DNA of 64,000 nt, from NCBI RefSeq assembly GCF_035084215.1, contig NC_090334.1:53072001-53136000 (forward strand), written 5' to 3'. The notes beneath the pieces were generated by a model. It was not told the DNA's origin. It made no database searches and saw only the letters and a program-made list of their open reading frames with translations. Made by a program: the position numbers and the translations under genes. This document shows, piece after piece, positions 41,942 to 42,964 of this stretch; within the stretch, counting starts at the first letter, position 1, and every line of letters begins with the position of its first letter. This stretch comes from Heptranchias perlo. Taxonomy: Eukaryota.

Positions 41942-42039
41942 CTATAAGAAAGAAAACTTGCATATTTTACCTCTATTTACCTGAAATCAAGTGGTTTCCA
42001 ATATGGACAATGGCTAACACCCAATACTAAATAAAGCAT

Positions 42040-42268
42040 TTGTAAACAATTTTACAACACCAAGTTATAGTCCAGCAATTTTATTTTAAATTCACAAGCT
42101 TTCGGAGGCTTCCTCCTTCCTCAGGTGAACGAAATGAAATACTTTCATGAGGAAGGAGGAAGCCTCCGAAAGCTTGTGAATTTAAAATAAAATTGCTGGA
42201 CTATAACTTGGTGTTGTAAAATTGTTTACAATTGTCAACCCCAGTCCATCACCGGCATCTCCACATCA
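42040..42268. mobile_element. Palindromic solo Penelope terminal-repeat insertion (family A)
   Basis: Perfect 84-bp inverted repeat 42040-42123 / 42148-42231, 37-bp tail, TSD taaataaagcat at 42028-42039 and 42269-42280. The arm matches 63926-64000 with one mismatch. Confidence 0.92.
42090..42130 (-). ncRNA. Minimal type I hammerhead ribozyme motif
   Basis: GUUCAC CUGAGGA A GGAGG-AAG-CCUCC GAAA GCUU GUGAAU: both conserved core boxes, stem I and stem II pair. Confidence 0.75.
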
Positions 42269-42964
42269 TAAATAAAGCATAGTATTGTTATAAAGGTACA
42301 AAAGGCGAAGAGATAATGCACAGAGATGAATATGAAATGGTTTGCCAATAAATGTTGTATTTGGGTCAGTAAATAACAGAGTGGAATATATTTATTACCA
42401 GTCTAAAGACAAAAGCAGAATACATGTAAAACAACACAGGAGGCAGTAAACTCCTCCTCCAAAAAGAGCTATATACAGAATGTATCCCACATCAGAGTAA
42501 CCTGCTCAACGTTCATACCTATGAATTCAATCCTTCTCAAAACAGTGGAATTCTATATTCAATATATCTCAACAAGCAATCTTTGAATTAAATCTTAGAA
42601 ACACAGTAAATTACTCAGAAACATAGGGGACAAGGAAGAACATTACAGCCAAAACGTCACAATAAAAATCATACTGGGAAATAAAATGAAAGTGGACATA
42701 AACCGTATACTGGCCTCATTAAATATAGATATGTACAGTGACAACTTAAAATACATGTATGAATATAACTTTTCTTTCCTGCTCCCTTCTTAAAGAAAAT
42801 AAAATTGTGACTTGACAAAGAAAAGTAATTTTTTTTTACTGCTAGTGTAATCACAGGTAAAGGGATTTAAGTTTGTATATTTAATGTAAACCAATCACAA
42901 TGTCAGAGCTTTTTTTGGATTTGAAAACTACTTGGTCAGGTTTTTATATCAATAAATGGATGTC

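Follow-up and report, generated by a model that had tools for sequence, protein, structure and literature searches.

The sequence analysed is a window of 64,000 nt from Heptranchias perlo contig NC_090334.1, and the coordinates below are positions in this window. It contains exons of a gene on the minus strand with a Pfam match to DUF4764, which we take to be ZNF839 on account of the link of that name to DUF4764. An exon of 132 nt, identified from putative RNA contigs and Pfam at 41810–41941 (minus strand), is spliced to 47366 and 36540; its numbering as exon 3, from exons other than those of the 5′ UTR, is plausible. Upstream of this exon lies an insert of 229 bp (42040–42268), the end of which is 99 nt and the TSD 87 nt from the splice acceptor. 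The first-pass annotation had placed it about 100 nt upstream of the acceptor with its hammerhead motif sense to the pre-mRNA, in agreement with the minus-strand orientation of the gene.

Other features occur in the window. Its sole Rfam match, at 55244–55316 on the minus strand with a score of 65 bits, is tRNA-Lys-like with anticodon CUU and lies just upstream of the first large ORF block within the DUF4764 gene; it could be a tRNA gene or the head of a tRNA-derived SINE. Two older, frameshifted, RT-containing retroelements of a different family with PLE-like motifs are present at about 56300–58050 and 37700–39350 (minus strand).

The exact anatomy of the insert was recovered from the window sequence, and the 229-bp insertion, 12-bp TSD, 84-bp perfect hairpin and 37-bp tail recognised earlier were all exact. 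Both TSD copies (42028–42039 and 42269–42280, plus strand) read TAAATAAAGCAT. The inverted arms at 42040–42123 and 42148–42231 match perfectly over exactly 84 bp and enclose a centre of 24 nt, made up of 17 nt of parent pLTR sequence that continues the minus-strand arm and a 7-nt junction insert, ACTTTCA (42141–42147, plus strand). The tailless arm (42040–42140, minus strand), delimited from the sequence and from look-alike loci (L001), comprises 101 nt of the pLTR end of subfamily B and stops at a position designated site 1; 84 of these nucleotides are paired perfectly with the opposite arm and 17 lie within the centre. The tailed arm (42148–42231, plus strand) consists of 84 nt of pLTR end, begins at U4 of the hammerhead core and is followed by the 37-nt PLE tail (42232–42268, plus strand). 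In a partial-tandem copy elsewhere (L297) the tail continues directly into the ORF start codon, designated site 2, giving the order TATA box, hammerhead, site 1 (the tailless end), 37-nt tail and ATG (site 2). The stub at 42040–42268 has neither a TATA box nor an ORF. Together with the preceding TGAAAT, the junction insert forms a mini fold-back, TGAAA-TAC-TTTCA, and it is likely a locally templated end-joining insert.

Short-read contigs, possibly from the source sample, span 41300–42057 and 42251–43000 with 0 differences. Because these contigs cover them, both outer junctions are real and an assembly artefact is ruled out there; moreover, 29 other loci share the layout with other centres. 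Among the short-read contigs listed, none crosses the centre of the insert. The flank contigs continue into the insert uninterrupted, a hint that this one sample is homozygous for it. No empty allele was found among the 15 joints shown of 131, and the X13 and X14 data covered the repeat only. Derivation from a pLTR, a head-to-head inverted truncated copy, a tail at one end and a TSD are the features of EN+ PLE insertion units, and the insert has all of them. It is a PLE insertion of the known inverted pLTR + tail layout at minimal length, and a young, ordinary, dead-end PLE product without an ORF. The perfect arms support the earlier description of a recent ORF-less product with this layout.

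Parent subfamily and hammerhead motif

A PLE of subfamily A, putatively Neptune-type, is located at 61224–64000 on the plus strand, with an RT, a CX4CX2C linker and a GIY-YIG-like motif. It is flanked by a 10-bp TSD, TTACTGAACC, and its end lies about 10 nt beyond the window. Pfam detected RVT_1 alone in the PLE ORF, and the GIY-YIG motif was recognised by eye. The RT-EN linker motif of the subfamily-A ORF, CHGNLCKTC, fits the CX2-5CxxC motif that, in the accessible part of PMC8557442, defines the Neptune/Nematis clade; the CX4CX2C linker suggests that the element is of Neptune/Nematis type. This PLE had been taken as intact and as the origin of the insert. It is one-armed, tailless and 5′-truncated: the 5′ pLTR and some 103 N-terminal codons are missing. 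The arms of the insert are identical to it at 74 of 75 nt. Nevertheless, the insert carries two markers of sister subfamily B, namely the 17 nt of extra parent sequence in its centre and the N7 letter of its hammerhead. Because of this extension and the N7 letter, the parent is subfamily B, and the element at 61–64 kb is excluded as parent and is a relative only.

Subfamily B gave 619 exact 44-mer matches and subfamily A 662 exact 47-mer matches, and the same 3′ end is common to a larger subfamily C and further variants. Two 47-nt hammerhead-bearing patterns had 7,234 and 7,625 matches. The arms match the ends of RT-coding copies, and long copies of subfamily B extend into the ORF.

A complete minimal type-I hammerhead, by the motif definition of PMC4209133, is found at 42130–42090 on the minus strand, sense to the host pre-mRNA. 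It comprises stem I (GUUCAC/GUGAAU), CUGAGGA with an extra A, stem II (GGAGG/CCUCC), GAAA and a palindromic helix III of 2 nt; if active, it is predicted to cut between 42096 and 42095 (H17 = U). The plus arm begins with UGAGGA and lacks both C3 and the stem I partner, with no 5′ strand of stem I. Both descriptions agree with the first-pass annotation. Compared with Rfam at gathering thresholds, the full window gave no hammerhead match. The computed pairing probabilities of stems I and II were 0.89–1.0 for the hammerhead alone and 0.00 in a pre-mRNA context of 400 nt, where the stems are lost because the antisense arm, which is transcribed first, pairs with the hammerhead. The motif is thus predicted to be fully sequestered in the 84-bp stem (predicted energy −159 kcal/mol), and the calculations support the sequestration proposed at the outset. 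This probably makes little difference to the hammerhead, since the monomers tested in the literature either fail to cleave or need protein: in vitro, cleavage was absent for a minimal PLE hammerhead monomer (PMC4209133), and the anole PLE hammerhead cleaved only with protein (PMC11167929), according to the accessible parts of these papers. By this analogy and the folding model, the hammerhead of the insert is predicted to be inactive.

Stubs of the same layout in the genome

The genome search for same-layout copies that had been suggested as a check was carried out with the insert as query, and such copies were abundant. The best 40 of 848 first-look candidates, which were the ones scored, all had the same arm/centre/tail layout at 94–100% identity. 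Among 30 look-alikes examined of the 848 candidates there were 25 distinct centres; that of the focal insert was unique among the 30, and four short centres recurred two to three times. The junctions of the look-alikes showed 0–3 nt of microhomology or short inserts. Contig C1 yielded 181 matches in its first 32.3 Mb. They form 45 inverted pairs, and in 26 of these the cores are separated by at most 60 nt. When the ratio of 26 short pairs per 181 matches is scaled to 14,859 matches, about 2,100 similar short palindromes are extrapolated genome-wide, as a rough lower bound. The insert is neither rare nor a member of a clonal mini-family, and each stub was likely built anew from two short head-to-head DNA copies.

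The population sample consisted of all 133 loci on contigs C1–C2 with an exact A or B pattern, 79 of them two-armed and 54 'one-armed'. The tail was present on exactly one arm in 76 of the 79 two-armed loci, on neither arm in two and on both in one; the latter lacks a TSD and combines arms of different subfamilies. The longest flanking repeat was 12 bp in 39 and 12–13 bp in 57 of the 79. Within the group of 76, the tailed arm was longer in 31 loci, the tailless arm in 30, and 15 had equal arms; a difference of more than 50 nt occurred in favour of the tailless arm in 15 and of the tailed arm in 20. The arms ranged from 39 nt to 2.6 kb. Their lengths peaked at 84–110 nt (47 of 158 arms) with three below 84 nt, in distributions biased by anchors that required arms of at least 84–102 nt. 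Arms under about 25 nt were missed by BLAST, and a short inverted piece was hidden in three of the 54 'one-armed' loci. The apparently one-armed copies L096, L105 and L142 hide a 15–25-nt inverted piece of the tail or end, which we regard as a second cDNA halted almost at once.

Private variants were usually common to both arms of one insertion (e.g., L118, L133, L181 and L198), and none of 46 inverted pairs was a mixed A/B pair. Because of the shared variants and the lack of mixing, both cDNAs would usually derive from one source. Of 40 inverted pairs listed for subfamily C, 9 had arms with different letters at hammerhead N7, as compared to 14.5 expected for independent templates; the status of these discordant pairs as single events was checked by TSD for L269 only. 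The arms of L315 differ at two recurrent sites and share two private variants. Such differences are better explained by independent RT passes than by DNA copying, with polishing error and short gene conversion as alternatives. CpG decay is an unlikely cause of the C/G discordance at N7, with 13 C>G and no C>T changes among the arms examined. In subfamily C loci such as L228, L269, L315 and L308/L309, two positions, N7 (C/G) and an A/C site some 155 nt from site 1, were discordant between the arms far more often than others, even in insertions with shared private variants; hot spots of RT error, modified RNA, the use of two templates or a polishing artefact are possible causes.

Some junctions are more complex. 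Those of L015, L022, L049/L107, L059/L115, L249, L260 and L270 are patchworks of short templated repeats that stem from the cDNA end or nearby target DNA, with three GAAAT units in L015 versus two in the parent, and the 5′ junction of the 61-kb element (61224–61300) is triplicated. The patchwork junctions resemble products of polymerase-theta end-joining or RT slippage. Family members were often located inside another copy of the family or within a few kb of one, as in L094, L098, L145, L161, L167, L203 and L252/L297.

The distance of arm ends to the pLTR TATA box was determined for 94 arms from the core-pattern lists, 21 of which were unassigned to a subfamily. Short A-type arms ended at TATA+28 to +34 in 14 of 16 cases with a mode of 94 nt from site 1, and short C-type arms at TATA+27 to +31 in 12 of 19 cases with a mode of 102 nt. 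The difference in arm-end distance between A and C had a p-value of 4e-6. Since the mode shifts with the position of the TATA box, the arm-end peak follows this box rather than a fixed length. A spacing of about 30 nt is usual between a TATA box and the transcription start. The peak some 30 nt downstream of the pLTR TATA suggests that cDNAs primed in the 5′ pLTR run off at the RNA 5′ end, although the fit is imperfect. The TATA-relative medians still differ between A (30) and C (27; p = 0.001), and in subfamily B 23 of 58 arms short of the TATA end at +23 to +25, with the tailless arm of the insert at +24, and about 105 of 724 arms at +29/30; all of this counts against run-off. Genome-wide counts for subfamily C fell from 4,988 (arms of at least 97 nt) to 2,035 (at least 110 nt) and to 1,350 over the next 13 nt; the first drop speaks for run-off and the last one against it, the latter partly reflecting CpG and variant loss. 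The hammerhead cleavage site was rejected as the cause of the arm ends, as the arms extend 30–50 nt past it. For comparison, the accessible passages describe a transcript start in the upstream pLTR with a TATA-less promoter for Drosophila Penelope (PMC2377424) and a TATA-Inr pair in rotifer pLTRs (PMC3846280).

Formation of the palindrome and rival explanations

We propose that the PLE enzyme would cut both target strands about 12 nt apart and that each cut end would prime one cDNA at one of two internal start sites. Priming at site 2, the tail end at the start codon, would give the tailed arm, and priming at site 1, 37 nt upstream of site 2, the tailless arm. Both short cDNAs would likely stop near the RNA 5′ end, and end-joining would unite them to a head-to-head palindrome. 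As sites 1 and 2 are only about 100–140 nt below the TATA box of the pLTR, a cDNA started in the 5′ pLTR would be 'strong-stop-like' with a length of about 100 nt, and ORF-less palindromes would result. Two primings fit the arm lengths best because a tailed cDNA that is copied back cannot give a longer tailless arm, nor can a tailless cDNA give a tail. In vitro, a PLE protein for which a dimer is predicted cuts and extends both strands, begins reverse transcription at two neighbouring internal sites, one at either end of the tail, and uses uncleaved RNA as template, as described in the accessible part of PMC11167929. In the same system RT started alike on both strands, whereas in the genome the pairing of tail and no tail is strict, which counts against the proposal. 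In searches that covered literature listings and openly accessible main texts, neither priming from two ends nor run-off at the transcription start was found described for PLEs. Taken as a whole, an origin as a dead-end PLE stub through two-ended priming, a stop near the RNA 5′ end and end-joining, neutral for the host, appears likely. We give an even chance to the stronger proposition that an asymmetric, probably dimeric enzyme makes the stagger of about 12 nt, always uses one end per site and produces two independent cDNAs of one RNA or locus that are then end-joined, the ORF-less palindromes being 'double strong-stop' products of run-off about 30 nt below the TATA.

The inverted arm could also arise when a single cDNA folds back, by self-priming or a template switch onto itself; self-priming on an antisense template was proposed for head-to-head PLE palindromes by Arkhipova et al. 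(2013, PMC3846280). Such copy-back likewise predicts that both arms share private variants absent elsewhere in the sample, as in the four loci named above, a point that counts against two-ended priming. It would also account for the lack of mixed A/B pairs, the perfect-palindrome junctions of L176, L182 and L197 at the A-type AGGAGCTCCT, and the mini fold-back in the centre of the focal insert. However, either arm can be the longer one (30 vs 31 of 76), often by hundreds of bases, the N7 differences in subfamily C run counter to it, and the two recurrent sites that differ in L315 should be the same in a DNA copy, so that we consider fold-back unlikely. As judged from the genomic copies, the population favours two-ended target-primed reverse transcription with run-off over fold-back self-priming. 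A different explanation retains two cDNAs and attributes the length of about 100 nt to limited initial RT processivity or a pause instead of the RNA 5′ end. It is conceivable though somewhat doubtful: the arms of B and C both peak near 100–102 nt from site 1 with TATA boxes that are 6 nt apart, and the counts continue to drop upstream of the predicted start, but the A-type peak is 8 nt shorter and tracks the closer TATA box. A block at hammerhead stem I leaves this shift unexplained, since the stem I end is equidistant in all subfamilies, and the stop region is common to tailed and tailless arms despite a tailed cDNA that is 37 nt longer.

Long perfect dsRNA is a generic ADAR/Dicer substrate, and the insert has an 84-bp perfect stem at −159 kcal/mol in a gene that is transcribed, at a distance of 99 nt from an acceptor. 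It might act as a functional host element by making the intron cleave itself, as a hairpin for ADAR/Dicer, or by modulating how the DUF4764/ZNF839-like gene is spliced. This is very unlikely. The splice path 47366 to 41941–41810 to 36540 was found with exact junctions in three of three putative RNA runs from one sample (runs X5–X7 and X9 are putative RNA in the form of assembled contigs, in which minor skipping is invisible), and the polypyrimidine tract and the usual branch-point zone are downstream of the insert. The hammerhead stem probability of 0.00 in context and the in vitro inactivity of published monomers also oppose a host role, and the perfect arms and about 2,100 peers argue for a recent random insertion, not selection. 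With the exon included, the effect on splicing considered in the first-pass annotation is unsupported, and the insert is most likely neutral for the host gene. That annotation further raised the possibility of a non-autonomous palindromic family, which would be transcribed and re-inserted as a unit in a retrozyme- or SINE-like manner. The single layout of the best 40 of 848 matches and the four recurrent short centres would suit such a family, and PLE-derived non-autonomous retrozymes exist (bioRxiv 10.64898/2026.07.22.740005, in its accessible part). Yet the retrozymes described there are tandem head-to-tail repeats, the centres are mostly distinct (25 of 30, the focal one unique), the recurrent ones are the simplest blunt or 1–3-nt-microhomology joins, arm lengths are continuous up to 2.6 kb and the stub has no TATA box. 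Spread as a unit is therefore extremely unlikely.

A single insert is of little weight, being one of two thousand or so estimated stubs of a known layout with no visible effect on the host exon. PMC8557442 counts the question of how tandem and inverted PLE structures form among the tasks still ahead. For the in vitro system of PMC11167929 the population statistics provide predictions: a 12-nt stagger, use of each site by one end, arm lengths that vary independently and arms that terminate where the RNA 5′ end lies. If the two-ended strong-stop reading is true, the inverted pLTR + tail structure, which has long lacked an explanation, would be accounted for and PLE transcription starts would be readable from genome sequence alone. 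Thousands of short perfect hairpins in the introns of a genome also imply a possible dsRNA load.

Relation to known systems

An inverted 5′-truncated pLTR, a TSD and a tail of 30–40 bp at one end make up the standard insertion unit of EN+ PLEs (Arkhipova et al. 2013, PMC3846280; Craig et al. 2021, PMC8557442). The insert shares with these units the head-to-head inverted pLTR, the one-sided tail (here 37 nt, reaching the start codon), the TSD and a palindromic or microhomology junction, and differs in its minimal size and lack of an ORF. The strict tail pairing, the TSD of about 12 bp and the pile-up of arm ends below the TATA, all features of a population of young and almost identical copies in this genome, were not found stated in the accessible passages on these units. 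The min-HHRs of PMC4209133 resemble the motif of the insert in type I topology, the extra nucleotide between 9 and 10.1, the G10.1-C11.1 pair and a palindromic vestigial helix III. Pairs of min-HHRs on opposite strands, separated by about 100–700 bp, were already reported there in 2014 together with numerous solo motifs, whereas in the insert the complete motif is on one arm only, within a perfect 84-bp stem.

The Poseidon element of Anolis carolinensis (Frangieh et al. 2024, PMC11167929) is similar to our proposal in its two tail-bounding RT starts, the cutting and extension of both strands and the use of uncleaved RNA. Its start sites are 111–118 nt into the ORF, whereas the tail described here ends at the ATG, and the accessible text was found to contain no explanation of the inverted arms or of a strand asymmetry of the two sites.

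Non-LTR retrozymes, as far as the accessible part of bioRxiv 10.64898/2026.07.22.740005 describes them, are like the stubs ORF-less, hammerhead-bearing and derived from PLE pLTRs. They are tandem head-to-tail and amplify as units, whereas every stub joins its arms head-to-head at a junction of its own. The insert is a single head-to-head unit, and the 25 distinct centres among the 30 look-alikes examined, with the focal one unique, differ from the shared junction expected of a retrozyme or non-autonomous family.

In L1 twin priming, reportedly described by Ostertag and Kazazian, both target strands are said to prime cDNA and thereby give an inversion within one TSD. There each cDNA stems from a different part of the RNA, whereas in the PLE stubs both would cover the same part, starting at two fixed sites that are separated by 37 nt.
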